The position numbers and the translations under genes were made by a program. The notes beneath the pieces are model-generated. The model saw only the letters and a list, made by a program, of their open reading frames with translations. It did no database searches and had not been told where the DNA came from. From positions 6 to 64,005 of the forward strand of contig JBEKOB010000011.1 of the NCBI GenBank assembly GCA_049522195.1: a stretch of DNA of 64,000 bases, read 5' to 3'. Of the stretch, positions 84 to 16,392 are shown piece by piece. Position 1 is the stretch's first letter. Every line of letters starts with the position of its first letter. Source of the stretch: Bacteroidota bacterium. Its GTDB lineage: Bacteria; Bacteroidota; Ignavibacteria; UBA10030.

Positions 84-2423
84 ATGCATCAACAGATTCC
101 ACACGAAAGTGCAGCGCTTCACGTTTCGGGTGAAGCACTGTACATCGACGACATCCCATCGAGCCCGACCACATTGATCGGGCGGGTCCTCTACAGTCCC
201 CATGCTCACGCCCGCATCGTTTCGTACGATCTCTCGAAGGCGAAAACCGTCCCAGGTGTTATTGCTGTGCTTTCGGCGAAGGATATACCGGGGCACAACG
301 AAATGGGGCCCGTGGTGAAGGACGAACCTTGCCTCGCGGACGGCGTCGTGACGTTTGTCGGACAGGCGGTCTTTTTGATTGCAGCAAAGACGGATGCCGA
401 TTGCCGTGCAGCAGAAAAACTCATTGAGGTCAAATACGAACCGCTGAAAACCATCCTCAGCATCGAAGACGCCATTGCTGCGAACAATATTCTCGGTCCC
501 GAACGAACGATGCAACGGGGAGATGCCAGGGATGCTCTTCGTTCAGCTCCGCATGTAGTGCATGGAGAAATCAAGACAGGCGCAGCCGAGCATTGGTATC
601 TGGAATCCCAAGCCTCCTTGTCCATGCCAGGTGAAGGGAATGAGATGGCTGTCTATTGCGGTTCACAGAATCCATCAGAGACACAAACGCTCGTTGCAGA
701 AGTGCTTGGAGTGAAAAAGAAGGATGTTCTGGTGGAGGTCCGGCGCATCGGAGGAGCGTTTGGTGGCAAGGAGACACAGGGAAACCACGTCGCATGCTGG
801 AGCGCTCTCCTCGCTCACGCAACCCGCTGTCCGGTCAAGATCCGCCTCTTCCGTGATGATGACATGATTATGACGGGCAAACGTCACCGATTCCTGACCC
901 GCTATGAAGCAGGATTTGATGATGACGGGAAGCTGCTGGCAGTCAGATTCGAGCTCAACAGCGACGCGGGAGCAGCAACGGATTTGTCGTTTGCGATTAT
1001 GGAACGGGCGATGTTCCATTGCGATAATGCATACTATGTTCCGCATATGACTGTCGTGGCGCGCGTCTGGAAGACCAATCTTCCTTCCAACACAGCATTC
1101 CGCGGCTTCGGCGGTCCGCAGGGGATGGCCGCCATGGAAACGATTATCGACCGCATTGCCAGATTCCTGCACAAGGACGCAGCAGAGATCCGGAAGATAA
1201 ACTTCTACGGCCTCGAAGCAAACAACGTGACACACTACGGCCAGAATGTGGAAAACAACAGACTGCACCTGATGTTCGATCAGTTGATGCAGTCATCGGA
1301 GTACGCAGCGCGTCGCAACGCCGTGACAGAATTCAATGCATCACACGAATTCTATAAAAGGGGGATCGCCCTTACTCCGGTGAAATTCGGTATTTCCTTT
1401 ACCACGACGTTCCTGAATCAGGCCGGTGCCCTCGTCATCATCTATAATGACGGGACCGTCCTCGTCAATCATGGTGGCATCGAGATGGGGCAGGGACTAC
1501 ACACGAAGATGCAGCAGATCGCCGCGGCGGAACTGGGGATCAGCATCGACCGCGTGCGCGTGAATGCGACTAATACTTCTAAGGTTCCGAACACGTCTGC
1601 CACAGCAGCGTCCTCAGGAACAGACATGAATGGCGCCGCAGTGAGGAACGCTATCGGTATCCTGAAAGAGCGCATTGCCGAAGGGGTCGCTTCGATCTTC
1701 AATGAAAAACGCCCGACGGTCCCAACGTCGATAGACGATATTCAGTTCGACCATGACACGATCTTCGACGTCAAGCATCTGGAACGCCGGATTGGATTTG
1801 CGGAGGCGATGCCGCAAATGGTCCTGCGTCGCATCAGCCTCAGCTCGACAGGATACTTTCGCACGCCGGGCATCGGATGGGACAAGGCCAAGGGAGTGGG
1901 GACGCCGTTCCGCTACTACGCCTTCGCCATGGCGGCGTCGGAAGTACTCGTGGACACGTTGACGGGCGGTGTGACGCTTCTCCGTACAGATATTCTTCAC
2001 GACGCGGGAGATTCAATCAACCCGGCGATTGACATCGGACAGATTGAGGGGGGCTACATTCAAGGAGTCGGCTGGTGCACGACAGAGGAAATCAAGTGGG
2101 ATCGTGATGGAAATCTGATGACGCATTCGCCCGACACCTACAAGATCCCTACAGCGAAGGACATACCGGGCGATTTCCGTGTCAAGCTGCTGGAGAATGC
2201 GGCGAATCCGAATGCTATTCATGGAAGCAAGACCGTCGCCGAGCCGCCGTTCATGCTCAGCCTCTCCGCATGGCTCGCGATCAAAGATGCCGTTTCGGCT
2301 GTTGGTTGTCATGAGACTGAACCTGAATTCTCGCTTCCCGCTACCAATGAAGTAATACTCCTTTCCATTGAGAAACTGAGAACGCTGACGAAAGAAAGCG
2401 CATCCGGGAAGGTGCCTATATGA
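84..2423 (+). CDS. xdhB: Xanthine dehydrogenase-type molybdopterin-binding large subunit (XdhB-like)
   Basis: ORF 12..2423 trimmed to ATG 84, which follows AGGAAAAGGG. The N-terminus is PHESAALHVSGEALYIDD. The blocks GGAFGGKET, AFRGFGGPQG and VAEPPF match the Glu/Arg/Glu active-site blocks of xanthine oxidoreductases. Confidence 0.85.
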   Translation: MHQQIPHESAALHVSGEALYIDDIPSSPTTLIGRVLYSPHAHARIVSYDLSKAKTVPGVIAVLSAKDIPGHNEMGPVVKDEPCLADGVVTFVGQAVFLIAAKTDADCRAAEKLIEVKYEPLKTILSIEDAIAANNILGPERTMQRGDARDALRSAPHVVHGEIKTGAAEHWYLESQASLSMPGEGNEMAVYCGSQNPSETQTLVAEVLGVKKKDVLVEVRRIGGAFGGKETQGNHVACWSALLAHATRCPVKIRLFRDDDMIMTGKRHRFLTRYEAGFDDDGKLLAVRFELNSDAGAATDLSFAIMERAMFHCDNAYYVPHMTVVARVWKTNLPSNTAFRGFGGPQGMAAMETIIDRIARFLHKDAAEIRKINFYGLEANNVTHYGQNVENNRLHLMFDQLMQSSEYAARRNAVTEFNASHEFYKRGIALTPVKFGISFTTTFLNQAGALVIIYNDGTVLVNHGGIEMGQGLHTKMQQIAAAELGISIDRVRVNATNTSKVPNTSATAASSGTDMNGAAVRNAIGILKERIAEGVASIFNEKRPTVPTSIDDIQFDHDTIFDVKHLERRIGFAEAMPQMVLRRISLSSTGYFRTPGIGWDKAKGVGTPFRYYAFAMAASEVLVDTLTGGVTLLRTDILHDAGDSINPAIDIGQIEGGYIQGVGWCTTEEIKWDRDGNLMTHSPDTYKIPTAKDIPGDFRVKLLENAANPNAIHGSKTVAEPPFMLSLSAWLAIKDAVSAVGCHETEPEFSLPATNEVILLSIEKLRTLTKESASGKVPI

Positions 2424-3673
2424 AATTGTCCGGTGATTCCTTCGTGGTTGGTCTTCGCTGTCTCGTTTGTGGTACTGAGTATGAAAATGGAAACCTTCAT
2501 ACGTGTCCGCGGTGCGGCATTCAGGGTATCCTCGATGTGAAATATGATTATGATAAAGCCGGACAAACGCTGACGTCGTCCGCTCTGCGTTCTCGTCCCT
2601 TCGACCATTGGCGGTACCGCGAACTGCTTCCGATCTCTCCGCAATCACCGGTTCCGTATCTGCAGGTTGGCTGGACTCCGGTCTACGACGTCCCACGCCT
2701 GGCGGTTGCCCTCGGGATGAAGAAGCTGTTCTTGAAGGATGACGGAAGAAATCCTACGAGTTCGTTCAAAGATCGGGCGAGCTCTGTGGGTGTGGTGAAA
2801 GCTCAGGAGTTTGGCTTCAAGACGATTGCGTGTGCATCGACCGGAAATGCTGCCTCCTCGCTTGCGGGCATGGCGGCGGCCAGTGGGCTTCGCAGTGTCA
2901 TCTTCGTACCACAACGGGCCCCCGAGCCGAAGGTTACACAACTGCTGATCTTCGGGGCTACGGTTGTGCGTGTGAAGGGGACATACGAGAACGCCTTCGA
3001 TCTTTGCCGGGAAGCGTGCCAGAAGTTCGGTTGGTACGACCGGAACAGCGGGACGAATCCTTTTCTCGTGGAAGGAAAGAAGACTGCGGGGTTGGAGATT
3101 GCTGAACAATTTGGCGCCACGATTCCGGATTGGGTTGTGGTCTCTGTCGGCGACGGCTGCACCATTGGAGGTATCGGCAAAGGGCTTGAGGAGATGAAAC
3201 GATTGGGCTTTATCGACCGCGTTCCGAGATTGCTTGGGGTCCAGGCAGAAGGTGCGCGGCCATTGCTCAATGCGTTTCGCAGCGGCAAAGACCTCTCACC
3301 GACCTCCGCGGATACCATTGCAGACAGCATCGCAGTCGGCACGCCGCGCAACTGGCGCCGGGCCATTCAACAGATCAAAGCATCGCGCGGTGACATGATC
3401 GCTGTTTCCGATGATGAGATTCTTGAAGCAATGCGCCTTACGGCGAAGCTCGGAGGAATTTTCGGCGAACCTGCAGGCGTGGCAGGTGTTGCCGGATTGA
3501 AAAAAGCGATCACCGATCGAATTGTGCCTGGAGATGATTCCGCGGTCGTTGTCATTACTGGCAATGGACTGAAGGACATTCAGTCTGCGAAGCGCACAGC
3601 CGTCGAAGCGCTTGAAATTGAGCCCGATTTTAGAGTTCTTGAAAAACATTTGTCCGACCGTTCCCTCATCTGA
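2420..3673 (+). CDS. Threonine-synthase-like fold-type-II PLP enzyme with N-terminal Cys4 zinc ribbon
   Basis: Zinc ribbon CLVCGTEYENGNLHTCPRCG. PLP-lysine block NPTSSFKDRASS. ASTGNAASS loop. ATG 2420 overlaps the xdhB-like stop (ATGA). Confidence 0.75.
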   Translation: MKLSGDSFVVGLRCLVCGTEYENGNLHTCPRCGIQGILDVKYDYDKAGQTLTSSALRSRPFDHWRYRELLPISPQSPVPYLQVGWTPVYDVPRLAVALGMKKLFLKDDGRNPTSSFKDRASSVGVVKAQEFGFKTIACASTGNAASSLAGMAAASGLRSVIFVPQRAPEPKVTQLLIFGATVVRVKGTYENAFDLCREACQKFGWYDRNSGTNPFLVEGKKTAGLEIAEQFGATIPDWVVVSVGDGCTIGGIGKGLEEMKRLGFIDRVPRLLGVQAEGARPLLNAFRSGKDLSPTSADTIADSIAVGTPRNWRRAIQQIKASRGDMIAVSDDEILEAMRLTAKLGGIFGEPAGVAGVAGLKKAITDRIVPGDDSAVVVITGNGLKDIQSAKRTAVEALEIEPDFRVLEKHLSDRSLI

Positions 3674-3684: not shown

Positions 3685-4986
3685 ATGAGTCTCCTATTAA
3701 AGAACGCGACCGCAGTCATCCTGGCACCACCGTCGATCGAAGCATGTGATATACGAATCGAAGAAGGCGAAATCGTTGATCGTGCTGCGCGGTTAAGACC
3801 AAAGCGGGACGATGATGTCGTTGATCTGAAGGGTTGGATTGTGATGCCGGGGTTTGTCTGTTCTCATACCCACCTCTACTCAGCGCTCTCCAGGGGCATG
3901 CCTGCACCCAAATCTTCTCCCAGGAATTTCGTCGAGATCCTGCAGAAGGTTTGGTGGAAGCTTGACGAATCGCTGGATGAGGAGTCAATCTACTACAGCG
4001 CACTTGCCGGCGCGATCGAATCGGTGAAGCTCGGTACGACAACGCTGATCGATCATCACGCGTCTCCGAATTTCATCAGCGGCTCGCTCGACCTCATCAA
4101 ACACGCGATGTGCCAGGTCGGTCTACGCGGAGTCCTCTGCTACGAAACGACGGATCGTGGAGGAAGAAAACGGCGTGACCGGGGGTTGGAGGAAAATGAG
4201 CGCTTTGTGACGGAGAATGCAAGCAACGCGCACTTCCGCGGAACGATCGGTGGGCATGCTTCATTCACCCTGAGCGATGATTCGCTTGTGTGGCTGGGTG
4301 AACTGGCAGGCATGTACGACTGCGGTGTCCACATCCATGTGGCTGAAGACAAAGCCGATGTCATTGACTCGGAGAGAAATCACAAAAGAGATATTGTGGA
4401 CCGACTTAGAGACTTTGGCGTGCTCAGGAACAAATCAATTCTGGTGCATGGAGTCCATCTCTCAAAGAAACAGTTGTCGGTGGTGGAGAAAGCCGGCGCC
4501 TGGATGGTTCATAATCCTCGTTCAAACATGAACAACGCCGTGGGATATGCTCCGCTGAGCTGGTACGGCGCACATTCCGCTCTGGGGACTGATGGATTCC
4601 CATCAGACATGTTCGAGGAAGCAAAGTTCGGTTACTTCCGCAACGCAGAATCGGACCACCGAGCGGAGTTTTCACGCCTCCCAACAATGCTGCAGAACGG
4701 TCAACAGCTGGCGTCGGAATTCTTCGACAAGCCATTCGGCAAGCTGGAAAAGGGGAGTCCTGCGGATCTGATCGTCCTCGAGTATGCTTCACCCACACCA
4801 CTCACGTCACGCAACCTGCATGGTCACTTCCTGTTTGGAATGAACGCGACCATGATTCGGCACGTGGCTGTAAACGGCAATTGGATAGTCTGGAACAATC
4901 AGCTCGTCGGAATTGATGAGGATGCCGTGATGCACAAAGCGGCAGCAGTTGCGAAGAAGCTTTGGAGTCGAATGCATGGCAAGTAA
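3685..4986 (+). CDS. ssnA: SsnA-like amidohydrolase (chlorohydrolase/aminohydrolase superfamily)
   Basis: Metal-binding HxH block CSHTHLYSAL, plus HVAED, VHGVH and GTDGF blocks. It sits next to Mo-hydroxylase genes, as in the E. coli ssnA-ygfM-xdhD arrangement. Confidence 0.7.
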   Translation: MSLLLKNATAVILAPPSIEACDIRIEEGEIVDRAARLRPKRDDDVVDLKGWIVMPGFVCSHTHLYSALSRGMPAPKSSPRNFVEILQKVWWKLDESLDEESIYYSALAGAIESVKLGTTTLIDHHASPNFISGSLDLIKHAMCQVGLRGVLCYETTDRGGRKRRDRGLEENERFVTENASNAHFRGTIGGHASFTLSDDSLVWLGELAGMYDCGVHIHVAEDKADVIDSERNHKRDIVDRLRDFGVLRNKSILVHGVHLSKKQLSVVEKAGAWMVHNPRSNMNNAVGYAPLSWYGAHSALGTDGFPSDMFEEAKFGYFRNAESDHRAEFSRLPTMLQNGQQLASEFFDKPFGKLEKGSPADLIVLEYASPTPLTSRNLHGHFLFGMNATMIRHVAVNGNWIVWNNQLVGIDEDAVMHKAAAVAKKLWSRMHGK

Positions 4987-7339
4987 GCACAAAATCATCG
5001 GCAAATCTGAACGTCGTGTTGATTCCTGGGGGAAAGTGACAGGAAGGGCGAAGTTTGCCGAGGACTATTCGGTTGGACACCAGTTGTGGGGAAAGGTGCT
5101 TCGCTCGAAGTATCCTCACGCCCTCATCCGCTCCGTCGATGTGTCTGCAGCGTCAAAGCTTTCCGGCGTTGAAGCAGTCCTTACAGCGAAGGATATCCCC
5201 GGAAGCAAGGTCTTTGGGATAGTCCTGAAGAACCAGCAAATTCTTGCAGAGGATCGGGTTCGCTATCTTGGCGATGGAGTCGCGCTGGTAGCGGCAAGAA
5301 CGAAAGAAGTTGCTGAGCAGGCACTGGCGCTTATTCGCGTTGAGTATGAGCCGCTCCCCGTCGTCTCTGATCCGGAAGAGGCGATGAAACCGGACGCACC
5401 TATTCTGCACGGCGAGAAAAATGAGTTTGTTCATCACAAAGTCCGTAAAGGGGACATCGCAAAGGGGTTTGCACAATCCGACTTCATTCTGGAGCGGAAA
5501 TTCAAAACGCAGTTCGTCGAGCATTCCTATATCGAACCCGAAGCTGTTCTCGCTGAGCCCGCGGAGCAAGGGGGCGTAAAGATCACAGGGTCGGTGCAAA
5601 ATCTCTTCTCCAGTCGCCGGTCGGTGGCAGATGCACTGAACATTTCCCTCAATCGTGTTCAGATTGTGCAATCAACCCTCGGCGGATCGTTTGGCGGGAA
5701 GGATGAAGTAATGACGTCGATGTGCTGCCGCGCAGCGCTTCTGGCGATCAAGACCGGCAAGCCGGTGAAAATAGTGAACACGCGTGAAGAGTCGATGCTG
5801 GAAAGCTACAAGCGTCACCCCTACGTGCTCTATTATAAGTGGGGAGCGAAAAAGGACGGGACGATTACCGCGATGGAGATTCGTTGCATCGCCGATGGCG
5901 GTGCATATTCGTCCATGAGTTCGTTCGTCACCTGGCGTTCGGTGGTTCAGGCAACAGGTCCGTATTATTGCGAGAACGTCCAAACGGATGTTTACGCCGC
6001 GTATACCAACAATAACTATACAGGGGCGATGCGCGGCTTCGGCTCACCGCAGGTCAATTTCGCCATCGAGTCGATGATCGATGAGCTCGCACAGGAAGTC
6101 GGAATGTCGCCTCTCGAAATCCGGATGAAAAACGGCTTTGAGGGGGGAGCTGTGACAGCAACAGGACAGCAGCTCACACACACGGTGAGCCTCAAAGAAG
6201 TGCTCACGAAAGCAGTCGATGCCATCGATTTCGAGAAGAAGTGGAAATTATATCGTGATGTGAAGGAAGGCGAAAAGAAACGCGGTGTTGGCCTGGCTTG
6301 CAGCTACCGCGGCGTTTCTCTCGGTGCCGAAGGGACCGATGCAGCAGAGACCATCGTCTCTGTTCAGACTGACGGAAGCGTGATTGTCTCATCCGGCGTC
6401 ACGGACATGGGGCAGGGGGCGCAGACGCAGATGTCGCAGATTGCGGCTGAGGTGCTGGGCATTTCGATGAACCGCATTCAATTCTTGAATACCAACACCA
6501 GCCGCGTAGCCGATTCAGGTCCGACCGTCGCTTCCCGCGGAACAATTATGGGAGGATCAGCGGCAAAGAACGCAGCAGAGAAAGTCAGAGCTACGTTGCT
6601 CGAGGTCGGCTCGGAGATGACAGGCGTCGATGTCGGTGCGCTTGACCTGGAAGACAATTATCTCGTGGACACAAGCAAGCGCGAGCGGCTGGCGTCGTTC
6701 GCCGAGCTTGCGACCGCTTGCTTCGACAAGGGAAAACCGATTATCGGACTTGGCTGGCATAAGTCGCCACCGACCTCCTGGCACGAAGAAGAAGGTCACG
6801 GGGAAGCCTACTTCACTTTTGTGTATGGCACAAACGCAGCAGAAGTGGAAGTGGATACCGAAACCGGAAAAGTCGATGTAATCGATTTTGTGTCGGTCCA
6901 TGACGTCGGCAAAGCTATCAATCGTGGGATGGTCGTCGGTCAGATGTGCGGTGGCGTTGCGATGGGACTTGGGTACGGCTTGCTGGAAGAGTTTGAGATC
7001 GAGGACGCTCTCCCCAAACAATTGAACTTTGACGAGTATTTGATCCCAACATCGATGGATGTCCCACGGATCAAGACGATCATTGTGGAAAACGAAGATC
7101 CGATGGGGCCATTCGGCGCAAAGTCTGTTGGCGAGCCGACGAATGAACTTGCCGCACCGGCAATCGTGAACGCGATCACGAACGCGACCGGAAAAAGGAT
7201 CTATGAACTGCCAGCGAACCTTGAACGGGTTCTGCTTGGTCACAAACTGACTCGCCACGGGAAACGCGGGTCGGATCAGAAAAACTCAATCGACGCAATG
7301 GTGGTTGATTCGTGCAAGATCCGTGGGGGGAATGTATGA
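4976..7339 (+). CDS. Xanthine dehydrogenase/aldehyde oxidase family molybdopterin-binding subunit (second hydroxylase, L subunit)
   Basis: ORF 4949..7339 trimmed to ATG 4976 (MASKHKIIGKSERRVD...). Hammerhead N-terminus GKVTGRAKFAEDY. Blocks GGSFGGKD, AMRGFGSPQ and SVGEPT. Overlaps the ssnA-like 3' end by 11 nt. Confidence 0.85.
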   Translation: MASKHKIIGKSERRVDSWGKVTGRAKFAEDYSVGHQLWGKVLRSKYPHALIRSVDVSAASKLSGVEAVLTAKDIPGSKVFGIVLKNQQILAEDRVRYLGDGVALVAARTKEVAEQALALIRVEYEPLPVVSDPEEAMKPDAPILHGEKNEFVHHKVRKGDIAKGFAQSDFILERKFKTQFVEHSYIEPEAVLAEPAEQGGVKITGSVQNLFSSRRSVADALNISLNRVQIVQSTLGGSFGGKDEVMTSMCCRAALLAIKTGKPVKIVNTREESMLESYKRHPYVLYYKWGAKKDGTITAMEIRCIADGGAYSSMSSFVTWRSVVQATGPYYCENVQTDVYAAYTNNNYTGAMRGFGSPQVNFAIESMIDELAQEVGMSPLEIRMKNGFEGGAVTATGQQLTHTVSLKEVLTKAVDAIDFEKKWKLYRDVKEGEKKRGVGLACSYRGVSLGAEGTDAAETIVSVQTDGSVIVSSGVTDMGQGAQTQMSQIAAEVLGISMNRIQFLNTNTSRVADSGPTVASRGTIMGGSAAKNAAEKVRATLLEVGSEMTGVDVGALDLEDNYLVDTSKRERLASFAELATACFDKGKPIIGLGWHKSPPTSWHEEEGHGEAYFTFVYGTNAAEVEVDTETGKVDVIDFVSVHDVGKAINRGMVVGQMCGGVAMGLGYGLLEEFEIEDALPKQLNFDEYLIPTSMDVPRIKTIIVENEDPMGPFGAKSVGEPTNELAAPAIVNAITNATGKRIYELPANLERVLLGHKLTRHGKRGSDQKNSIDAMVVDSCKIRGGNV

Positions 7340-8193
7340 AGCCTTTCGAGTATTACTCCCCTCAATCAATCGCAGAGAGCTGCACTCTTCTGGGACAACT
7401 TGGGAGTGGCGCAAAAATCCTTGCAGGTGGTACTGATGTCCTGATCGAGCTCCGGAAGTCAGGAGATGAAGTGGCCGGCTCAATCGTCGACATCTCCAGA
7501 ATTTCATCGCTGAGGGGAATTGAAGAATCCGGCGACACGATTGTCATCAAGCCGCTGACAACTCACACGGATATTCTCCAATCCGCTCTCATCGGCACCC
7601 ATGCGCCGTTGTTGAAAACCGCGGCCGCTGGCATCGGGTCGCCGCAAATTCGTAATCGGGGCACAGTCGGCGGCAACATCATGAATGCAGCTGCTTGCGC
7701 TGATACCGTTCCCCCTCTTATCGCTCTTGGAGCCAGAATCCGACTGCAATCCTCTGCAGGAGATCGTACAGTTGCGCTTTCGGATTTCTTCACAAAACCG
7801 TATGTCACCGCGGCACGACAAGGAGAGATCCTCGTTGAGATTCGATTCCCGAAACTCCCTCGAGATGCACGAAGCTCATTCATCAAGTTGGGACGCCGGA
7901 ATGCCCTGTCAATTTCCAGGCTCAGTGTCGCTGCGATATTGAAAACGGATCAGTCTGGATTGGTGACTGACGCGCGGATTGTGCCGGGCGCTGCACTGCC
8001 GACTTGGCACCGTGTGGCTGAAGCAGAGAACCTCCTGATCGGCCACGAACCTGCACGAGAGTTGTTCGTCGAGGCAGGAAAGAAAGTCTCCGAAGTCATG
8101 ATATCGTTTACCGGCAGGCGCTGGTCGACGGAGTACAAGGAACCGGTGATCGCCGTGCTCGTTCGGCGTGCGCTGGAAGCTTGTCGCTGGTAA
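7336..8193 (+). CDS. Mo-hydroxylase FAD-binding (medium) subunit, CoxM/YgfM-like
   Basis: ORF 7312..8193 trimmed to ATG 7336, which overlaps the upstream stop (ATGA). Blocks ILAGGTDVLIELR and NRGTVGGNI are typical of the CO-dehydrogenase flavoprotein fold. Confidence 0.8.
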   Translation: MKPFEYYSPQSIAESCTLLGQLGSGAKILAGGTDVLIELRKSGDEVAGSIVDISRISSLRGIEESGDTIVIKPLTTHTDILQSALIGTHAPLLKTAAAGIGSPQIRNRGTVGGNIMNAAACADTVPPLIALGARIRLQSSAGDRTVALSDFFTKPYVTAARQGEILVEIRFPKLPRDARSSFIKLGRRNALSISRLSVAAILKTDQSGLVTDARIVPGAALPTWHRVAEAENLLIGHEPARELFVEAGKKVSEVMISFTGRRWSTEYKEPVIAVLVRRALEACRW

Positions 8194-8222
8194 AGAGGCA
8201 AACCGCAAAGGACGCGCTTGTA

Positions 8223-8243
8223 AGGCGAAGTTTTACTTCGCCT
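8223..8243 (+). other. Intercistronic hairpin between the FAD- and FeS-subunit genes
   Basis: AGGCGAAG-TTTTA-CTTCGCCT, a perfect 8-bp stem with a 5-nt loop, read directly. No U-tract follows. Confidence 0.5.
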
Positions 8244-8266
8244 ACGACTATGGTAAGGATGGATTC

Positions 8267-8851: not shown

Positions 8852-8862
8852 CCCCGGATGTT

Positions 8863-10123: not shown

Positions 10124-11356
10124 ATGGAATACAAAATCATGAAGGAAATTGAAATCTATCCAGCGCGGGATTTATCGTACGATTTTCTCGGGATTCACTT
10201 CGAGAATCCATTCATCCTTGCCGCAGCTCCGTCCACGGACGACCTTGACATGGTCCGCCGTGCATTTGAGATAGGGTGGGCGGGAGCAATCCTGAAGACC
10301 ACATCTATCGAGGGAACGCGCGTCGATCTCTGCTATCCGATGATGTCCACCTTCAACCATGAAGGGAAGAAACTATTCGGGATGGGAAACATCGACCTCA
10401 TCTCCGAACATCACATCGACAAGGTCGAATACAACGTTCGGACGTTGAAAAAGGAGTTTCCGGAAAAGATGGTGGCAGCAAGCATCATGGCAGGGCGGAA
10501 AGAAGACTGGCAATCGCTCGTCCAACGGCTTGAAAAAGCAGGAGCAGACCTCATCGAATGCAGCTTTTCGTGCCCGCAGGGAAACATCGGTGAGGATCCG
10601 GGAAAAATGCTTGCACAAAGCCTGAGTGCCACTGAGCTCACCGCTCGCTGGGTCAAAGAGGCAACATCGAAGACCCCGGTATCCATCAAGATAACACCTC
10701 ACGTCACCGACATCGTCGAAGTGGCACGGGCGGTGAAACGTAGCGGGTGCGATGCACTCACGGCGTCCAACTCCATCCAGGCTCTGATGGGGATTGATAT
10801 TCACTCATTTGCTCCGCATCCGAGTCTGGGAGGAAAATCGACGTATAGCGGCATGACAGGCCCGGCCATCAAGCCGATCACGCTCCGGACCATTGCGGAA
10901 ATTGCCCGCAACGTTGACATCCCGATTCTCGGGACCGGCGGGGCATCGACGTGGAGCGATGCGGTCGAATTCATGGCTGTTGGTGCCGGCGTCGTTGAGT
11001 TCTGCACGGTGGTGATGCACCACGGGTTCCACGTGATCGATGAGCTGCGCAATGGAATGTCGCACTACCTCGATGATATGAAGTTCTCTTCTCCGTCAGA
11101 AATCGTCGGCAAGGCTTTGCCCAATATCGTCATGCACGATGATTTGCCACGGCAGACAATCCGGAGCCACATCAACGAAAAGCTCTGCATCGGATGCGAC
11201 GTCTGCTATGTCGCATGCCGCGACGGTGGCCATACGGCCATTGACCAACGGCCGAACAGAGTTCCTCACGTCGACTGGGATCGGTGCGTCGGCTGCGGTC
11301 TCTGTCAGTTCGTTTGCCCGGTGGATGGGTGCATTGAGATGCGCGTGAAAGCGTAA
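10124..11356 (+). CDS. preA: PreA-like dihydropyrimidine/dihydroorotate dehydrogenase-fold subunit with C-terminal 2x[4Fe-4S] ferredoxin domain
   Basis: DHODH-like barrel blocks (ILKTTS, SFSCPQ, NSIQAL, ILGTGG). C-terminal CIGCDVCYVACRD and CVGCGLCQFVCP. Starts 10 nt after the preT-like stop. Confidence 0.7.
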   Translation: MEYKIMKEIEIYPARDLSYDFLGIHFENPFILAAAPSTDDLDMVRRAFEIGWAGAILKTTSIEGTRVDLCYPMMSTFNHEGKKLFGMGNIDLISEHHIDKVEYNVRTLKKEFPEKMVAASIMAGRKEDWQSLVQRLEKAGADLIECSFSCPQGNIGEDPGKMLAQSLSATELTARWVKEATSKTPVSIKITPHVTDIVEVARAVKRSGCDALTASNSIQALMGIDIHSFAPHPSLGGKSTYSGMTGPAIKPITLRTIAEIARNVDIPILGTGGASTWSDAVEFMAVGAGVVEFCTVVMHHGFHVIDELRNGMSHYLDDMKFSSPSEIVGKALPNIVMHDDLPRQTIRSHINEKLCIGCDVCYVACRDGGHTAIDQRPNRVPHVDWDRCVGCGLCQFVCPVDGCIEMRVKA

Positions 11357-11393: not shown

Positions 11394-12587
11394 ATGACAC
11401 AAAAGCAATTACAGTCAGCACTCAGTGAGTTGAAGAAACTCAAGCTTGGCATGTTCAACAAGGATTTCCTCCTTACGTGGGAACGCAGTGACGATGAGAT
11501 CAAGGGGGTCGTCATTGTTGCAGAAATCTTCAACCACCTGCACAAGGCAGGGATTTCTTTCCGGACGTTCGAGACCGGTCTGGCCATTTCGATTTTCCGG
11601 GACAAGTCAACACGCACACGGTTCAGCTTTGCGTCGGCGGTGAACGCTCTGGGTCTGGGGCTCTCTGAGCTTGATGAAGAGAAATCCCAGATTGCTCATG
11701 GCGAGACCGTCCGAGAAACCGCCAACATGATTTCCTTTCTCGCCGAGACAATCGGTATTCGGGATGACATGTTTCTGGGCGAAGGAAACAAATATATGCG
11801 TGAGTTCGGTGCGGCAGTAGAGGAGGGCTTTGAAAAAGGTGTTCTTCATCGCCGTCCGACTGTCGTAAACCTTCAGTGCGATATCGATCATCCGACCCAG
11901 ACGCTGGCCGATCTCCTGCAGTTGAAAAACCATTTCGGATCGCTGGAAAGCCTTCGTGGCAAGAAGATAGCGATGACGTGGGCCTACTCCCCGAGTTACG
12001 GGAAGCCGCTCTCAGTTCCTCAGGGAATTATCGGTCTGATGACGAGATTTGGAATGAACGTTTCGCTTGCCTACCCGAAGGGATATGATCTGATTCCCGA
12101 CGTTGTGAATGTAGCGAAGAAGAATGCGAGTCAGCGTGGAGGATCGTTCACTGTCGTCGACAGTATGGAACAGGCATTCGAAGGCGCAGACATTGTTTAT
12201 CCAAAATCGTGGGCCCCTTATGAGGTGATGCAGCGAAGGACAGAATTACTCAATGCGAATGACAAGGAAGGGCTGATCGGGCTGGAGAAAGAGTGCCTGG
12301 CAAACAACGCCCGGTTCAAGAACTGGGAGTGCGACGAAAAAAAGATGAAGCTGACAAAGAAGGGCGAAGCCCTTTACATGCATTGTCTCCCGGCAGACAT
12401 CTCCGGGGTAAGCTGTGGGCAAGGAGAGGTCTCAAAAACCGTCTTTGAGAAATACCGGCTGGCTACGTACGCAGAGGCCGGATTCAAACCGTTTGTGATT
12501 GCAGCGATCATCTTTCTCACGCGGATGCAGAAGCCGTTGGAGACCCTCCGGGCAATCATAAAACGCAATTATAGCAGAACGGTGTAA
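11394..12587 (+). CDS. ygeW: YgeW-like (knotted) carbamoyltransferase
   Basis: Transcarbamylase motifs STRTRFSF, HPTQ and HCLP. About 400 aa. RBS AAGGGAG upstream. Confidence 0.75.
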   Translation: MTQKQLQSALSELKKLKLGMFNKDFLLTWERSDDEIKGVVIVAEIFNHLHKAGISFRTFETGLAISIFRDKSTRTRFSFASAVNALGLGLSELDEEKSQIAHGETVRETANMISFLAETIGIRDDMFLGEGNKYMREFGAAVEEGFEKGVLHRRPTVVNLQCDIDHPTQTLADLLQLKNHFGSLESLRGKKIAMTWAYSPSYGKPLSVPQGIIGLMTRFGMNVSLAYPKGYDLIPDVVNVAKKNASQRGGSFTVVDSMEQAFEGADIVYPKSWAPYEVMQRRTELLNANDKEGLIGLEKECLANNARFKNWECDEKKMKLTKKGEALYMHCLPADISGVSCGQGEVSKTVFEKYRLATYAEAGFKPFVIAAIIFLTRMQKPLETLRAIIKRNYSRTV

Positions 12588-12589
12588 GG

Positions 12590-14050
12590 ATGTCTGAAAT
12601 GTCGAAAATCATTAAGCAGCGCTACCCCGATGTTGTCAAGAAAACTGCCGCACGCTGCAAAGAACGCGGTGTGGTTATCCCGACCTTTGCGCAGATGCGC
12701 GATCCACAGCTCATTCCTGAGTCGATCAGGAAGAAGCTCTCGGGAATCGGTCTCTGGGATATCAATCCGCTCAATCTCTTTCGAATCACCTGGAAGAATG
12801 ACATGCAGACGGGGATGTTCGGCGGTGTGAATTATCTCGAAATCCCATCTGCGATCACCGGTGTGCGGGCCCGCGTCATTGGCCTCATCGGCAAGTACTT
12901 CCCGACCGGAGCGCACAAAGTTGGCGCTGCGTTCGGCTGCCTTGTCCCGCGCCTGGTCAGCGGAGAGTTTGATCCTGCGCGGCACAAAGCAGTATGGCCG
13001 TCGACGGGCAACTTCTGCAGAGGGGGAGCGTTCGATTGCGCTTTGCTCGGGTGCACACCGGTCGCCATACTCCCGGAGGAAATGTCGAAAGAGCGATTCC
13101 AGTGGCTGAAAGAAATCGGTGCGGAGGTCATCGCCACGCCGGGTTGCGAGTCGAATGTGAAAGAGATTTATGACAAGTGCTGGGAGCTGAAGAAAGATCC
13201 GATTAACATCATCTTCAATCAGTTCGAGGAATTTGGCAACCCGATCTGGCATTATAACGTTACTGGTCCGGCGATTGAGGAAGTGTTCAGCGTACTGGGT
13301 TCCGAGAAGCTGCGAGCCGCTGCGTACGTTTCCGCTACCGGCTCTGCGGGAACGATTGCCGCAGGAGACTATCTCAAGAAGCAGCACCCCCATCTCAAGA
13401 TTGTCGCCGGCGAAGCGTTGCAGTGCCCGACGCTGTTCATGAACGGCTTTGGGGGCCATCGCATCGAAGGCATCGGAGACAAGCACGTGCCATGGGTTCA
13501 CAACGTCCGAAATACGGATGCAGTAGCTGCCGTCGACGACGAAGACTGCATGCGCGTTCTCAGACTCTTCAATGAACCGGACGGCAAAAAGTATCTTGCA
13601 TCATTAGGTATTCCGCAACAACAGGTGGATCGGTTGTCGCTTCTCGGTATCTCCGGTATCGGGAACATGCTTGCTGCGATGAAGGCAGCCAAGTACTTCG
13701 AATTGACGAGCGACGATGTCGTCTTCACAATCTTCACGGATTCTGTTGATCTCTACCAGTCGCGGCTTGAAGAGCTTCGCAAGGAACGCGGCGCATATTC
13801 TTCAGTGGCGGCGGCAAGGGATCATGCCGGACCGCTTGCACACCAATCGATCGATTTCTTCAAGGAACTGGGTTACTACGATCGAAAGGCGATTCACAAT
13901 CTTAAATACTACACGTGGGTGGAGCAACAGGGAAAAACCTACGAAGAGATCAACGCACAATGGGATCCCGAGTACTGGCGAAGCTTGTTTGAGGATGAGG
14001 TAGGATACTTCGATACGCTGATCGGCGAATTCAATACTCTGGCCAGCTGA
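12590..14050 (+). CDS. Fold-type-II (Trp-synthase-beta superfamily) PLP-dependent lyase/thiolase-like enzyme, OrtB-like
   Basis: Blocks PTGAHKVGAAFGC (putative PLP lysine), STGNFCRGGA and SATGSAGT (glycine loop). The ATG lies 2 nt after the ygeW-like stop. Confidence 0.55.
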   Translation: MSEMSKIIKQRYPDVVKKTAARCKERGVVIPTFAQMRDPQLIPESIRKKLSGIGLWDINPLNLFRITWKNDMQTGMFGGVNYLEIPSAITGVRARVIGLIGKYFPTGAHKVGAAFGCLVPRLVSGEFDPARHKAVWPSTGNFCRGGAFDCALLGCTPVAILPEEMSKERFQWLKEIGAEVIATPGCESNVKEIYDKCWELKKDPINIIFNQFEEFGNPIWHYNVTGPAIEEVFSVLGSEKLRAAAYVSATGSAGTIAAGDYLKKQHPHLKIVAGEALQCPTLFMNGFGGHRIEGIGDKHVPWVHNVRNTDAVAAVDDEDCMRVLRLFNEPDGKKYLASLGIPQQQVDRLSLLGISGIGNMLAAMKAAKYFELTSDDVVFTIFTDSVDLYQSRLEELRKERGAYSSVAAARDHAGPLAHQSIDFFKELGYYDRKAIHNLKYYTWVEQQGKTYEEINAQWDPEYWRSLFEDEVGYFDTLIGEFNTLAS

Positions 14051-14063: not shown

Positions 14064-15269
14064 ATGCAGAACAAGATTCTTGGCGCAGCACAAAACAATG
14101 AACGGCAGGTGGTGAAATTCCTGCGTGACCTGATCGCGATCAAGTCGATCAGTTCGCAGGAAGAGCAGGTCATTGAGCGTATCAAAGAGGAAATGGAGCG
14201 GTGCCGGTACGACGAGGTGACGATTGATCCGATGGGGAACATCCTCGGCCGCATTGGTAAAGGGAAACACATCATTGCTCTCGACGCGCATGTCGATACG
14301 GTCGATGTCGGCAACCCTGCGAACTGGACGGTCGATCCCTTTAAGGGAGCAGAGAAGGATGGCATCATCTATGGCCGGGGCGCCTGCGATATGAAAGGTG
14401 CTCTTGCTTCAATTGTGTACGGTGGCAAGCTGATCAAAGACTTGGGGCTCGAGGACGATTTCACACTCTACGTCGTCGGGAGCGTGCAGGAAGAAGATTG
14501 CGATGGATTGTGCTGGCAGTATATCATCAATGAGGACAAGCTACGTCCTGAAATCGTTGTCATTGCAGAACCGACAAACCTCGGCATCTACCGCGGCCAT
14601 CGGGGTCGGATGGAAATCCAGGTACATACGAAGGGAATATCGTGTCACGGATCGGCTCCGGAGCGTGGAGTGAATGCGGTCTACAAGATGGCTCCGATCA
14701 TACAAGACATAGAAAAATTGAATGACCGTCTCAAGGGGGAGCCATTCCTCGGCAAGGGAACAGTCACGATTTCAGAAATCCGCTCAACGTCCCCCTCGCT
14801 CTGTGCAGTTGCAGATTCCTCTTCGATTCATCTTGACCGCCGCCTGGCAGCAACGGACACGTTGATGTCGGCCGTGCAGGAGATCCAGGAATTGCCGAGC
14901 GTGAAACAGGCGCAAGCTGATGTCGTTGTGCTGGATTACGCTGTCCCGAGCTGGAAAGGACTGACATATCCGACGAAGAAATATTACCCCACCTGGCTTT
15001 TGCCGGAGAACCATCCTGCGCTGGGGAGCGGTGTGACCTCGTTCGAAAAGTTGTTTGGGGAAAAGCCGGTAGTCAATCGTTGGCAATTCAGCACGAACGG
15101 CGTTGCCGTGATGGGCATGCACAGCATCCCATGCATCGGCTTCGGACCGGGGAACGAGATCTATGCACACATGGCAACCGAGCAGATCGCCATTAACCAG
15201 CTCGTGAAGGCAATGGCCTGGTACGCAATGTTCCCGCTCGTCTATACGGATTCTGCGAAGCAGCGTTGA
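14064..15269 (+). CDS. ygeY: YgeY-like M20 family metallo-hydrolase/deacylase
   Basis: M20 metal and catalytic blocks ALDAHVDTV, GRGACDMKG and VQEEDCDG. About 400 aa. Sits next to a ygeW-like gene, as in E. coli. Confidence 0.7.
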   Translation: MQNKILGAAQNNERQVVKFLRDLIAIKSISSQEEQVIERIKEEMERCRYDEVTIDPMGNILGRIGKGKHIIALDAHVDTVDVGNPANWTVDPFKGAEKDGIIYGRGACDMKGALASIVYGGKLIKDLGLEDDFTLYVVGSVQEEDCDGLCWQYIINEDKLRPEIVVIAEPTNLGIYRGHRGRMEIQVHTKGISCHGSAPERGVNAVYKMAPIIQDIEKLNDRLKGEPFLGKGTVTISEIRSTSPSLCAVADSSSIHLDRRLAATDTLMSAVQEIQELPSVKQAQADVVVLDYAVPSWKGLTYPTKKYYPTWLLPENHPALGSGVTSFEKLFGEKPVVNRWQFSTNGVAVMGMHSIPCIGFGPGNEIYAHMATEQIAINQLVKAMAWYAMFPLVYTDSAKQR

Positions 15270-15282: not shown

Positions 15283-16392
15283 ATGAACATCCTGTCTGAA
15301 ATCGTCAGCGCTTTAGCGGCGCGTGACCGCGTGGTGCTTGCAACAATTGTCTCGTCGTCGGGATCAGCGCCATTGCCCACCGGCTCTTCCATGCTGGTTT
15401 GCGAACATGGCATGCGCGTGCTGGGAACGGTTGGCGGAGGATTGCTTGAAGCGAGTGTAACCAAAGAAGCGAAAGAATTCTTTATTGATGCCAAAAAATC
15501 GGTGACAAGAACATTCGAACTGAACGAGTCCGGCAGCGAAGAGGGCATGATTTGCGGTGGTACCGTTGAGGTGTTGATCGAGAGGATTGGCGAAGAGGCT
15601 CTCGCCGTGTTCTCGCGGCTAGCCGGAATGCACAATGACGGGAATGATTGCACGCTTCTGCGCCGGATCGATCCGTCCGGTGAGGTAACAAGGTATGCGT
15701 TTGAAGATAGAACTGAGCAGGTCGTACTCCTCCAGTTATTCGATGGACTTCTGAAAGAACTCGAAATTGAGACCGGAATATTCCTTCAAAGTCTCCAGCG
15801 GTCTCATCGGGAGGAAAGCGTGAGGCACATCGCTTCGCAAGGAGGCGAGCTGATCATTCAACCGATTGTTGGAATACAGCCGCTGATTATCTGTGGGGGC
15901 GGCCATGTTGGTCGTTGTCTCTCGACAATAGCCGCAGCAACCGGCTTTACGGTGACCGTTGTTGACGACAGGGAAGAATACGCCACACCCGGGCGCTTTC
16001 CAGAAGCGGCCCGCATTATATCAAAACAATGGAACGAGGCGTTTTCAGAAATTGCCATAACACCATCGACCTCCATCGTGATCGTGACACATGGGCACGA
16101 GTCGGACAAAGAGGTCTTACGTCTTGTCATCAATACGTCGGCGAGGTACATTGGCATGATTGGGAGCGGCAAGAAGGTTGCTGCGACCTATGACGGTCTT
16201 CGAAAAGAAGGGATACCTGTTGAGGCGTTCAAACGAGTTCATGCTCCGGTTGGTCTCGATCTGGGCGCCGTGACGGCAGAGGAAATAGCAGTGAGCATCG
16301 TTGCAGAGCTCGTTCGTGAGCGACGCCGTTTTCATGGAATTTTGTCTCCTTTATCGGACCGCATGAATCGGTGGTTCGATCGAGCTGAATAA
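15283..16392 (+). CDS. xdhC: XdhC/CoxI family molybdenum-cofactor insertion/maturation protein
   Basis: N-terminal VLATIVSSSGSAPLPTGSSMLV...GTVGGG block and central Rossmann LIICGGGHVG. Confidence 0.75.
   Translation: MNILSEIVSALAARDRVVLATIVSSSGSAPLPTGSSMLVCEHGMRVLGTVGGGLLEASVTKEAKEFFIDAKKSVTRTFELNESGSEEGMICGGTVEVLIERIGEEALAVFSRLAGMHNDGNDCTLLRRIDPSGEVTRYAFEDRTEQVVLLQLFDGLLKELEIETGIFLQSLQRSHREESVRHIASQGGELIIQPIVGIQPLIICGGGHVGRCLSTIAAATGFTVTVVDDREEYATPGRFPEAARIISKQWNEAFSEIAITPSTSIVIVTHGHESDKEVLRLVINTSARYIGMIGSGKKVAATYDGLRKEGIPVEAFKRVHAPVGLDLGAVTAEEIAVSIVAELVRERRRFHGILSPLSDRMNRWFDRAE

Follow-up and report, generated by a model that had tools for sequence, protein, structure and literature searches.

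A putative NAD(P)H-linked, selenium-independent version of the reductive urate pathway in an Ignavibacteriales operon

The operon described here, the bulk of which lies in a contiguous 64,000-nucleotide stretch of DNA (the window), probably encodes an environmental form of the reductive urate (2,8-dioxopurine) pathway that is linked to NAD(P)H and does not depend on selenium; we put the probability of this reading, taken together with the operon structure given below, at about 0.7. The 2,8-dioxopurine route is anaerobic and was biochemically established in gut bacteria in 2025; it runs from urate to 2,8-dioxopurine and, through ring reduction, opening by SsnA and HyuA and the action of YgeW and YgeY, to diaminopropionate and pyruvate (PMC12507026; bioRxiv 10.1101/2025.04.24.650524). 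The premise of a first-pass annotation of this DNA, that most of these steps are biochemically unresolved, is outdated. Its core proposal, that a purine-derived ring is reduced, hydrolysed, de- or transcarbamoylated and deaminated, agrees with the logic of the 2025 pathway and with the comparative evidence presented here. In the E. coli cluster, where 2,8-dioxopurine is called 'yanthine', the gene order is ygeW-ygeX-ygeY-hyuA-yqeA ... ygfK-ssnA-ygfM-xdhD (Li et al. 2025, PMC12507026).

As shown in Table 1, all genes named by the first-pass annotation between positions 84 and 16392 were recovered on the + strand where it had placed them, and they form a near-contiguous, co-directional cluster of 12 genes. 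Their tight packing was likewise confirmed: neighbours either share 4-38 nt or lie 2-37 nt apart, the sole exception being the 119-nt spacer 5' of preT. No promoter- or terminator-like signal rose above chance on the + strand inside the operon, this spacer included, and the cluster is followed, after a 242-nt gap, by a GntR/uronate block unrelated to it. The A-rich array in the spacer has a similar counterpart in one related genome (G004) and a different one in another (G003). The T-rich array at the start of the window has short matches on other contigs, and the xdhA-xdhB spacer of G004 holds an inverted pair of T-rich arrays in the same 7-nt register; the assembly breaks at the T-rich array, and Logan contigs from four runs likewise terminate ∼33 nt upstream. 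The host is a peat-dwelling Ignavibacteriales bacterium, with a habitat of peat and wetland.

Table 1. Features of the cluster and its spacers, in window coordinates
Feature	Position	Strand	Basis
T-rich repeat array, 7-nt register, in xdhA-xdhB spacer	1..50	.	sequence reading; site of assembly break
xdhB, Mo-binding subunit, Rhodobacter-type xanthine dehydrogenase	84..2423	+	TIGR02965, 1035 bits vs cut-off 850
ThrCL, Zn-ribbon threonine-synthase-like PLP enzyme	2420..3673	+	PALP domain; NF006050, 310 vs 303
ssnA amidohydrolase	3685..4986	+	TIGR03314, 465 bits vs 455.5; NF005540, 485 vs 444
Second xanthine-oxidase-family hydroxylase, large (Mo) subunit	4949..7339	+	Ald_Xan_dh_C and MoCoBD_1/2 domains; start codon uncertain
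Second hydroxylase, FAD subunit	7312..8193	+	FAD_binding_5 and CO_deh_flav_C domains
Second hydroxylase, 2x[2Fe-2S] subunit	8168..8743	+	Fer2 and Fer2_2 domains
119-nt spacer with heptad-register A-rich repeat throughout	8744..8862	.	sequence reading; sole sizeable gap of operon
PreT-like FAD/NAD(P)H and 2x[4Fe-4S] subunit	8863..10113	+	Fer4_20 and Pyr_redox_2 domains
PreA-like FMN (DHO_dh) and 2x[4Fe-4S] subunit	10124..11356	+	NF006183, 430 bits vs 335
ygeW knotted carbamoyltransferase	11394..12587	+	TIGR03316, 616 bits vs 500
PLP486, 486-aa CysK/CBS-fold PLP enzyme	12590..14050	+	PALP domain, 59 bits; ygeX slot between ygeW and ygeY
ygeY M20 hydrolase	14064..15269	+	TIGR03526, 580 bits vs 321
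xdhC-family, Moco insertion/sulfuration chaperone	15283..16392	+	XdhC_CoxI and XdhC_C domains

The genes upstream of the window were sought on other contigs. Contig C151 has as its last genes hyuA (TIGR02033, 614 bits) and then the xdhA small subunit (TIGR02963, 583 bits), the latter directed outwards, past the edge of the contig, and an unbroken hyuA-xdhA-xdhB-...-xdhC synteny is present in two genomes of the same genus. We infer from these relatives that hyuA and xdhA lie directly upstream of the window, across an assembly break that the assembly leaves unbridged. The window would then begin inside one long operon, with hyuA-xdhA before the break and xdhB-thrCL-ssnA-MoL-FAD-FeS-preT-preA-ygeW-PLP486-ygeY-xdhC after it. 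The first-pass annotation had pointed upstream for xdhA; its statement that a hydantoinase is missing is true of the window alone, not of the whole locus. A similar distinction applies to carbamate kinase, which is missing from the window but has a homologue with 44% identity to YqeA on contig C44 of the same genome.

The steps of the proposed mechanism are established for enzymes from E. coli and Clostridium; for the present organism they are predictions. XdhAB, with XdhB as its Mo-binding subunit, would convert hypoxanthine and xanthine to urate, from which the three-subunit Mo hydroxylase would strip the 6-oxo group, producing 2,8-dioxopurine. The C4=C5 bond would next be reduced by PreT/PreA, with electrons entering through PreT and passing from NAD(P)H to its FAD and on through Fe-S clusters to PreA, the candidate 2,8-dioxopurine reductase, which would stand in for YgfK/UacX and carry FMN at its active site. 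SsnA and HyuA would open both rings of the reduced purine to yield 2,3-diureidopropionate; YgeW would then phosphorolyse one ureido group, releasing carbamoyl phosphate, which could yield ATP through the carbamate kinase encoded elsewhere, and YgeY would hydrolyse the other to leave 2,3-diaminopropionate. Finally, ThrCL and PLP486 would jointly do the job of YgeX, producing pyruvate and ammonia. As a best guess at how the two share the work, ThrCL would perform the diaminopropionate ammonia-lyase-type step proper, and PLP486 would take a β-substituted alanine that ThrCL cannot, such as the other enantiomer or β-ureidoalanine.

Curated cut-offs were passed by SsnA, YgeW, YgeY, HyuA, XdhA and XdhB, and identity to the E. 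coli counterparts was 42% for SsnA, 67% for YgeW, 54% for YgeY and 42% for HyuA. The active-site motifs of XdhB are canonical (FGGKE, MERA and AEPP), and its partner is the xdhA small subunit at the end of contig C151. The XdhC-family protein scored 324 bits against NF045664 (cut-off 350) and 127 bits against TIGR02964.

The second Mo hydroxylase was regarded by the first-pass annotation as a departure from known clusters; the published pathway, however, expects both a xanthine dehydrogenase and a urate 6-dehydroxylase. We rejected orthology of this enzyme to XdhD or the Clostridial DOPDH: the identity is 30%, the XdhD insertion holding Glu606 is missing from the large subunit, and this subunit scores below every NCBIfam equivalog cut-off. 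The product of the enzyme is consequently assigned from genomic context, which suggests interconversion of urate and 2,8-dioxopurine. The large subunit retains the catalytic Glu (GEPT) and the Arg880 equivalent and has Asp at the Glu802 position; orthologues with 45-48% identity occur in ssnA clusters of several phyla, and the proteins of solved structure closest to it are 4-hydroxybenzoyl-CoA reductase and nicotinate dehydrogenase. The 2x[2Fe-2S] subunit probably starts downstream of 8168, as the profiles match from about residue 36 onwards. The missing Glu606 insertion, the Asp/Arg pair, the identity of the solved relatives and the mere 31-35% identity between the cluster PreA and UacX-like proteins of other phyla would also fit a different entry chemistry, in which the second hydroxylase and PreT/PreA act on another oxopurine (such as xanthine, 6,8-dioxopurine or a product of adenine or guanine hydroxylation) and the ring opened by SsnA and HyuA is not the published dihydro-2,8-dioxopurine. 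We consider this unlikely, given that SsnA, HyuA, YgeW and YgeY are orthologous to enzymes with 2,8-dioxopurine-derived substrates, that the operon also holds a canonical urate-making XdhAB, and that YgfK, in published assays of three xanthine isomers, accepted the 2,8 isomer alone (PMC12507026; bioRxiv 10.1101/2025.04.24.650524).

The candidate ring reductase shares with E. coli PreT/PreA (NAD-dependent dihydropyrimidine dehydrogenase) the two-subunit architecture, the cofactor-binding motifs and the catalytic SCPQ cysteine, with full-length identities of 34% for PreT and 39% for PreA; unlike the E. coli genes, the present ones lie between a Mo hydroxylase and ygeW. The PreA-like protein may act on uracil or thymine, since it passes the NCBI PreA equivalog cut-off. 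This score, the complete PreT/PreA architecture and the fact that HyuA scores as a dihydropyrimidinase/D-hydantoinase would be expected if PreT/PreA, HyuA and an M20 carbamoylase formed an ordinary reductive uracil/thymine pathway beside xanthine dehydrogenase genes. However, the cluster PreA, which is 84-91% conserved among clusters, has only 37-40% identity to a second, 'regular' PreA class of the order. The latter is found in genomes that have the cluster and in others that lack it, and one genome (G018) contains both; the cluster PreA is thereby a paralogue distinct from the regular PreA found in this order. The pocket motifs also differ, being ECSFSCPQ and SNS in the cluster PreA and ELN..CP and INT in the regular PreA: the Asn of E-x-N-x-S-C-P is a Ser and NT is changed to NS, such that the two positions are Ser/Ser in 9/9 cluster-linked PreA rows and Asn/Thr in 6/6 regular and E. 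coli rows. Both substitutions are common to other cluster-linked PreA/UacX-like proteins. Further, orthologous clusters have either PreT/PreA or a YgfK-type gene in this slot; two genomes of the same order (G023 and G024) have a YgfK-N-terminal-like gene next to thrCL instead of PreT/PreA. In addition, pyrimidine catabolism has no use for ssnA, ygeW or ygeY. A composite nucleobase operon is thus very unlikely. In the present genome, a search for YgfK returned GltD-domain matches only, and ygfK and preA occurred together in 0 of 80 loci. The proposal of the first-pass annotation that PreT/PreA stands where YgfK would be is supported by the distinct paralogue, the shared pocket substitutions and the YgfK-type gene in the same slot of sister lineages.

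The same annotation correctly noted two PLP enzymes instead of YgeX, for which the best match in the genome reached 44 bits (cut-off 532); both ThrCL and PLP486 are present. ThrCL shares with ThrC the lysine motif SFKDRAS (PLP Lys117), matching Aquifex ThrC at 231 bits, and it also aligns over 365 residues with E. coli YgeX (diaminopropionate ammonia-lyase, YgeX/DpaL). It forms its own clade, separate from housekeeping ThrC, and lacks the Arg of NPxR.EG.KT that is kept in 9/9 ThrC rows; an N-terminal Cys4 ribbon (Cys14/17/29/32) and non-membership of TIGR03528 are further differences from ThrC and YgeX/DpaL. The thrABC genes of the genome lie on another contig (C2), and ThrCL never adjoins thrA or thrB. 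The second enzyme, PLP486, had been called OrtB-like, an identity that we rejected: no OrtB match was found at E<1e-10, and the best matches were to CysK/CBS at ∼100 bits (best NCBIfam match CysK, 100 bits vs cut-off 351). Consistent with this, Foldseek searches with its AF2 model (pLDDT 94.9) returned CBS, CysK and β-cyanoalanine synthase as top matches (TM 0.78-0.86 on target, probability 1.0). With the O-acetylserine sulfhydrylase/CBS/β-cyanoalanine synthase branch it shares the core fold, the PLP lysine (Lys110) and the STGN and GSAGT loops; it differs in its helical N- and C-terminal extensions (∼170 extra residues) and in having ssnA-cluster neighbours rather than cysE or sulfur genes. 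Its putative reaction is a β-elimination or β-replacement on a β-substituted alanine.

Homologues of PLP486 with 59-79% identity occur in many phyla, mostly inside ssnA clusters. Among 40 PLP486-bearing genomes from many phyla, 39 encode a ThrCL-family protein (≥432 bits; other ThrC ≤330), 38 an SsnA-like protein (≥294 bits) and none a YgeX over cut-off, although these counts overstate statistical support because related genomes are not independent. Of 18 SsnA-positive Clostridia, YgeX alone is present in 13 and an adjacent PLP486 and ThrCL pair alone in 5. The exclusivity is not absolute, since weaker YgeX-like genes (239-500 bits) are found in 4 of the 40 genomes, and PLP486 may accordingly do something that YgeX does not. 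This co-occurrence, the solitary position of PLP486 among housekeeping genes in some genomes, its kinship with the β-replacement enzymes CysK, CBS and β-cyanoalanine synthase, and the inclusion in the ThrC family of such enzymes as cysteate synthase (an 88-bit profile match to ThrCL) would suit a salvage or biosynthetic branch, in which aminoacrylate or diaminopropionate is turned into another amino acid by β-replacement and deamination is left to an unrecognised enzyme or is absent. We regard such a branch as quite unlikely: the pair is near-perfectly complementary to YgeX, its members and SsnA occur together almost throughout, PLP486 occupies the exact ygeW-X-ygeY slot, and, without deamination, diaminopropionate would be the end of the pathway.

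The first-pass annotation had also suggested looking for selenium-related genes and a permease. Profile searches of the genome gave no match to SelD or YqeB, and tblastn with the E. coli proteins gave none to YqeC (sole query, E≤1e-8) or MocA; at least four further genomes of the genus that carry the cluster and are 92-99% complete likewise lack SelD. No purine/urate permease was found with E. coli XanQ and UacT as queries.

Overall, the operon resembles the E. coli cluster in its SsnA, YgeW, YgeY and HyuA orthologues, in the ygeW-X-ygeY order and in the combination of a FAD-containing Mo hydroxylase with an NAD(P)H-type reductase module. It differs in having two-subunit PreT/PreA for YgfK, ThrCL and PLP486 for YgeX, a non-orthologous L/FAD/FeS enzyme for XdhD-YgfM, Rhodobacter-type XdhAB and the XdhC chaperone within the operon, carbamate kinase outside the cluster, and no match to SelD and YqeB (profiles) or YqeC and MocA (E. 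coli queries, tblastn). With the C. sporogenes and C. difficile pathway it shares two Mo hydroxylases, a xanthine dehydrogenase and a urate-reducing enzyme, and a carbamate kinase that can sit elsewhere on the chromosome (Liu et al. 2025, bioRxiv 10.1101/2025.04.24.650524), and with C. difficile a PydA/PreA-type FMN enzyme as ring reductase, there UacX, which replaces YgfK (PMC12507026). In contrast, the published Clostridial enzymes are described as having no FAD modules and making no use of NAD(P)H (bioRxiv 10.1101/2025.04.24.650524), whereas both redox enzymes here have subunits of the FAD/NAD(P)H type. The pathway of the Clostridia needs SelD/YqeBC and uses YgeX, none of which was found here, and it comes from the gut, not from peat and wetland as here. 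Because the reductive purine-ring reading matches the pathway published in 2025, the kind of pathway is already known; what sets this version apart, together with the lack of detected selenium genes, is that three of its steps, those of the ring reductase, the YgeX slot and the second Mo hydroxylase, are predicted to be carried out by different enzymes.

The first-pass annotation had described a gene cluster tightly packed on one strand, and this was seen for 12 genes, which overlap by 4–38 nt or are separated by gaps of 2–37 nt, the sole exception being a repeat-filled spacer of 119 nt ahead of preT. Searches with Pfam and NCBIfam profiles bore out the gene list of that annotation apart from a single label. 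The assignments are collected in the table below; the functions given to the operon proteins are predictions from homology, synteny and co-occurrence. Beyond the end of xdhC, and after a gap of 242 nt, come a GntR/LacI-type regulator gene and pectin/uronate genes, a separate module that is syntenic within the genus and unrelated to the purine operon.

Features of the operon and of related loci (window positions unless a contig or locus is named)
Feature	Position	Profile match or content
Operon, last 12 genes	84-16392 (+)	xdhB to xdhC
xdhB		TIGR02965, 1035 bits vs cut-off 850
ThrC-like PLP enzyme (ThrCL)	2420-3673	PALP domain; NF006050, 310 bits vs 303, borderline
ssnA		TIGR03314, 465 bits vs 455.5; pathway marker
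Second xanthine-oxidase-family enzyme	4949-8743	large, FAD and 2Fe-2S subunits
PreT-like/PreA-like pair		PreA: NF006183, 430 bits vs 335
ygeW		616 bits
PLP486 (486-aa PLP enzyme)	12590-14050	TIGR01139 (CysK), 100 bits vs cut-off 351
ygeY		580 bits
XdhC-family chaperone		XdhC_CoxI and XdhC_C domains; last gene of operon
Repeat arrays	1-50; 8726-8851	7-nt register
Pectin/uronate block	16635-22173	GntR-HTH/LacI-sensor regulator, kduD, GH88-like gene, kduI, uxaC
hyuA (HyuA/D-hydantoinase)	end of C151	TIGR02033, 614 bits
xdhA (small subunit)	end of C151	TIGR02963, 583 bits vs 467
388-aa signal-peptide protein	L008 (C151):3298-4464 (-)	upstream of hyuA
124-aa fragment	L008 (C151):4461-4835 (-)	upstream of hyuA
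thrABC	C2:17599-22398	thrC at C2:21085-22398
Third ThrC-family gene	C43:32044-33213	36% identical to ThrCL
Carbamate kinase homologue	C44	44% identical to YqeA
selD of congeners	G002:C131:7981-8901; G003:C28:36241-37167; G007:C375:8045-8956	one in-frame TGA
Solitary PLP486 genes	L063, L064, L092, L097, L101 (~10001-11450)	amid LeuRS, poly(A) polymerase, RadC genes
Long ThrC-like frames	L076:2297-5341 (-); G066:C1024:589036-590184	~1015 and 812 residues

The window starts 5 nt inside its contig, C11, and the xdhA gene sought upstream of nt 1 was found at the end of contig C151, where it follows hyuA and runs off the contig. In two relatives of the same genus, the order hyuA-xdhA-xdhB-thrCL-ssnA-MoL-FAD-FeS-preT-preA-ygeW-PLP486-ygeY-xdhC-gntR-kduD is unbroken, with protein identities of 68–91% in the closer one (G004) and 51–87% in the other (G003). 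Arrays of repeats fill both sizeable spacers of the operon, and the assembly break falls in the heptad-repeat array at the window start. Because the end of C151 carries hyuA-xdhA, the relatives show unbroken synteny and the break lies in a repeat array, HyuA belongs to the operon. Thus, the earlier statement that hydantoinase and carbamate kinase are missing holds for the window but not for the genome, which has hyuA on the adjoining contig and a carbamate kinase homologue beside an OTCase-like gene on another. The xdhA-xdhB gap was not bridged by Logan contigs matching window positions 1–3000, and contigs of four peat runs end ∼33 nt upstream of the window, so that the array at the window start interrupts these public contigs as it does the assembly. 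In the corresponding spacer of G004 (L019/L020), an inverted pair of arrays in the same 7-nt register could form a long hairpin. A scan for sigma-70 promoters and intrinsic terminators, whose models do not cover Bacteroidota-type promoters, gave nothing above chance. Two frames upstream of hyuA, encoding a 388-aa protein and a 124-aa fragment, were dropped as operon members, being without a Pfam or NCBIfam match and unconserved in position in relatives. G004 holds an APC-family permease gene upstream of hyuA, the orthologue of which is absent from the host genome.

The mechanism proposed in the first-pass annotation, reductive breakdown of a purine-derived ring, is essentially a pathway published in 2025, and this kind of system is therefore already described. 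In that pathway, XDH supplies urate from hypoxanthine and xanthine, and XdhD-YgfM (DOPDH) reduces urate to 2,8-dioxopurine (PMC12507026; bioRxiv 10.1101/2025.04.24.650524). YgfK then dearomatises the 2,8-dioxopurine ring, a step for which C. difficile uses UacX, a homologue of PydA/PreA (PMC12507026). SsnA and HyuA open the ring to give 2,3-diureidopropionate, from which YgeW yields carbamoyl phosphate and then ATP via carbamate kinase, encoded outside the cluster in some strains; YgeY trims on to 2,3-diaminopropionate, which YgeX deaminates to pyruvate (PMC12507026; bioRxiv 10.1101/2025.04.24.650524). The pathway was described from gut bacteria and presented as one that depends on selenium and is enriched in host-associated habitats, with SelD and YqeBC present in all gut strains having the cluster (PMC12507026; bioRxiv 10.1101/2025.04.24.650524), and SelD is needed by both Mo enzymes in C. 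sporogenes (bioRxiv 10.1101/2025.04.24.650524). Of the features that define the reductive urate cluster, we found SsnA, HyuA, YgeW and YgeY above their cut-offs and an FMN-type reductase in the operon; YgeX/DpaL and the selenium trait SelD/YqeB/YqeC were not found. Having two hydroxylases, as noticed at first pass, is in line with the published pathway. What is new relative to the 2025 papers is the PreT/PreA-type two-subunit reductase, the ThrCL and PLP486 pair for YgeX, the non-XdhD hydroxylase and the probable independence of selenium. Threonine synthase, cysteine synthase, PreT and Ignavibacteria do not appear in either paper, our literature search returned no paper naming ssnA along with threonine synthase and none describing the PLP pair, and the PLP genes are unmentioned in a 2026 Prevotella preprint.

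The reductase slot next to SsnA is occupied by a PreA-like protein (PF01180 with two [4Fe-4S] clusters) and its PreT partner, both of which align over their full length to E. coli PreT and PreA. YgfK (TIGR03315) was not found in the genome, where matches were confined to its GltD-like middle domain, so that the pair would indeed stand in the place of YgfK, as first proposed. Among 80 loci holding PLP486 in many phyla, clusters had either a YgfK-type or a PreA-type gene and none had both. Within the same order, the cluster PreA is 84–91% identical and adjoins thrCL in genera g1, g4 and g10, and in two genomes (G023 and G024) a gene resembling the YgfK N terminus takes its place. A second, regular PreA class, 37–40% identical to the cluster PreA, was found in ten relatives, five of which lack the cluster-type ThrCL and one of which (G018) has both classes. 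In E. coli PreA and in the regular PreA of five Ignavibacteriales, the motif E-x-N-x-S/G-C-P has its Asn and an N-T pair is present, at positions that we take to be those of Asn668 and Thr737 in pig DPD, which contact the pyrimidine. All nine cluster-linked sequences (the window and eight homologues) have Ser and N-S there, and this set includes UacX-like sequences of Verrucomicrobiota, Aminicenantes and LCP-89. Hence, the two-subunit architecture is like that of E. coli PreT/PreA, but the pocket residues differ. The distribution of the two classes and the Ser/N-S pocket argue for a cluster PreA whose substrate would be specific to the purine cluster rather than uracil or thymine. Because the cluster PreA passes the NCBI equivalog cut-off for PreA, automatic annotation will misname it as an enzyme of pyrimidines.

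By equivalog scores (TIGR02965 and TIGR02963) and its active-site triad, XdhAB is a Rhodobacter-type xanthine dehydrogenase; XdhB has the canonical Glu/Arg/Glu residues and the motifs FGGKE, MERA and AEPP. The large subunit of the second hydroxylase keeps the catalytic Glu and the Arg, has Asp at the Glu802 position and lacks the 11-residue insertion that carries Glu606 of XdhD. It is 30% identical to XdhD, scores below all equivalog cut-offs (TIGR03313, 338 bits versus 1102) and has 4-hydroxybenzoyl-CoA reductase and nicotinate dehydrogenase as its best solved relatives. Because of these scores, the missing insertion and the non-XdhD nearest solved relatives, its putative role as the urate/2,8-dioxopurine enzyme rests on context: orthologues 45–48% identical lie within ssnA clusters from genomes of Ignavibacteriota, Acidobacteriota, Verrucomicrobiota and LCP-89.

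In the host genome, estimated to be 100% complete, the best SelD profile match reached 49 bits (cut-off 125), YqeB gave no profile match, and tblastn with the E. coli protein found no YqeC (E≤1e-8). SelD was also missing from at least four further cluster-bearing congeners that are 92–99% complete. Given that SelD, YqeB and YqeC were not found, that SelD-free congeners exist and that the last gene of the operon encodes an XdhC-type chaperone, the version of the pathway seen here is very probably sulfur-type, not selenium-type. Selenium use is patchy within the genus, since SelD occurs in three of nine genomes and is absent from the other six, the host included. Each of the three SelD genes has one in-frame TGA, presumably a selenocysteine codon.

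The first-pass annotation was right that two PLP enzymes are present and YgeX is not, the best YgeX match in the genome scoring 44 bits against a TIGR03528 cut-off of 532. Its label OrtB-like for the 486-aa enzyme was wrong: profile matches and fold comparison rejected it and identified a distant CysK/CBS relative. The PLP486 gene lies exactly between ygeW and ygeY, the position of ygeX in E. coli. In its AlphaFold model (pLDDT 94.9), helical N- and C-terminal extensions flank a CysK/CBS/beta-cyanoalanine-synthase core, and the PLP lysine is Lys110; with CysK/CysM, it shares the fold alone. When one genome per species was scanned with a six-sequence alignment as query, there were at least 595 matches, of which 80 loci were kept. 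In these, PLP486 is 59–79% identical across phyla, including Ignavibacteriota, Acidobacteriota, Verrucomicrobiota, Bacteroidales, Elusimicrobiota, Planctomycetota, Spirochaetota, Bacillota and others. Its neighbours in the long loci are ssnA, ygfK or preTA, ygeW, ygeY, hyuA and genes for Mo-hydroxylase and carbamate kinase; a ThrC-like gene lies within 10 kb in 33 loci and is directly adjacent in 21. In five loci, PLP486 stands alone amid housekeeping genes; each of these genomes has ThrCL at another site, and an SsnA-like protein is encoded in four of them, the genome of L097 having none at E≤1e-80.

The ThrC-like neighbours of PLP486 and the window ThrCL form one clade (99% SH-aLRT) apart from housekeeping ThrC, with a Cys4 ribbon and the motifs SFKDRAS and STGNA in common. 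ThrCL resembles threonine synthase in its PLP lysine motif and borderline score but differs in orthology, in thrA/thrB context and in the Arg of the block N-P-x-R-x-E-G-x-K-T, which is replaced by Leu or Thr in every ThrCL row and kept in nine of nine ThrC rows. This Arg, we assume from the T. thermophilus threonine synthase structure, binds the substrate phosphate. The host has three ThrC-family genes, that of an ordinary thrABC operon, one on contig C43 and the cluster ThrCL. In a Planctomycetales MAG (L076) and in G066, the ThrC-like gene lies in a much longer frame, which suggests fusion of ThrCL to another domain. ThrCL scores just over the NCBI threonine synthase cut-off, and automatic annotation will misname it.

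None of 40 PLP486-bearing genomes has YgeX over the cut-off (weaker YgeX-like genes occur in four). An SsnA-like protein scoring 294 bits or more was found in 38 of them, and 39 encode a member of the ThrCL family at 432 bits or more, where the next-best ThrC reaches at most 330. The only one of the 40 to lack ThrCL carries a YgeX-like gene close to ssnA. SsnA exceeded its cut-off in 18 of an even sample of 300 Clostridia; 13 of these had YgeX and neither PLP gene, and five, one of them the chosen centre of the sample, had adjacent PLP486 and ThrCL and no YgeX. The pattern of pair versus YgeX holds across phyla; the counts include related, non-independent genomes, and we claim no p-value. ThrCL would be the likelier lyase, because its alignment with E. 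coli YgeX extends across 365 residues (E 9e-12) and that of PLP486 across only 46, with PLP486 adding a beta-elimination or beta-replacement activity. This division of labour is tentative, because the pairing is constant and combinations of PLP486 with a YgeX-like gene occur occasionally. That PLP486 is a urea-releasing beta-ureidoalanine lyase is less attractive, because the genome lacks the urease alpha subunit and YgeY is constantly present. A tentative reading, to which we give a probability of roughly 0.3, is that ThrCL and PLP486 are no simple swap for YgeX but a lower branch for which both enzymes are obligate, perhaps as a heteromer, and whose chemistry the published scheme does not contain. 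Such chemistry may be, for example, stereoinversion of D-2,3-diaminopropionate together with beta-elimination, or direct beta-elimination from beta-ureidoalanine.

The stretch is present in many peat and wetland metagenomes, with no RNA run among those listed, and its close homologues are in MAGs named Ignavibacteriales or Bacteroidota. The locus would represent a complete-looking version of the pathway in free-living peat Ignavibacteriales, predicted to operate without selenophosphate synthase, with both redox enzymes of the NAD(P)H type and another PLP pair closing the pathway. That pair is highly conserved (59–79% identity between phyla) and goes along with SsnA in many of them. Since its members now carry the names threonine synthase and cysteine synthase, annotation would not connect them with urate degradation. 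Assigning reactions to the pair would correct these annotations, complete the pathway for a large share of environmental diversity and give selenium-free parts for engineered urate-degrading strains. If the two-enzyme branch is true, the anaerobic end of purine breakdown would differ between most environmental bacteria and the gut models, and would be selenium-free in the former.
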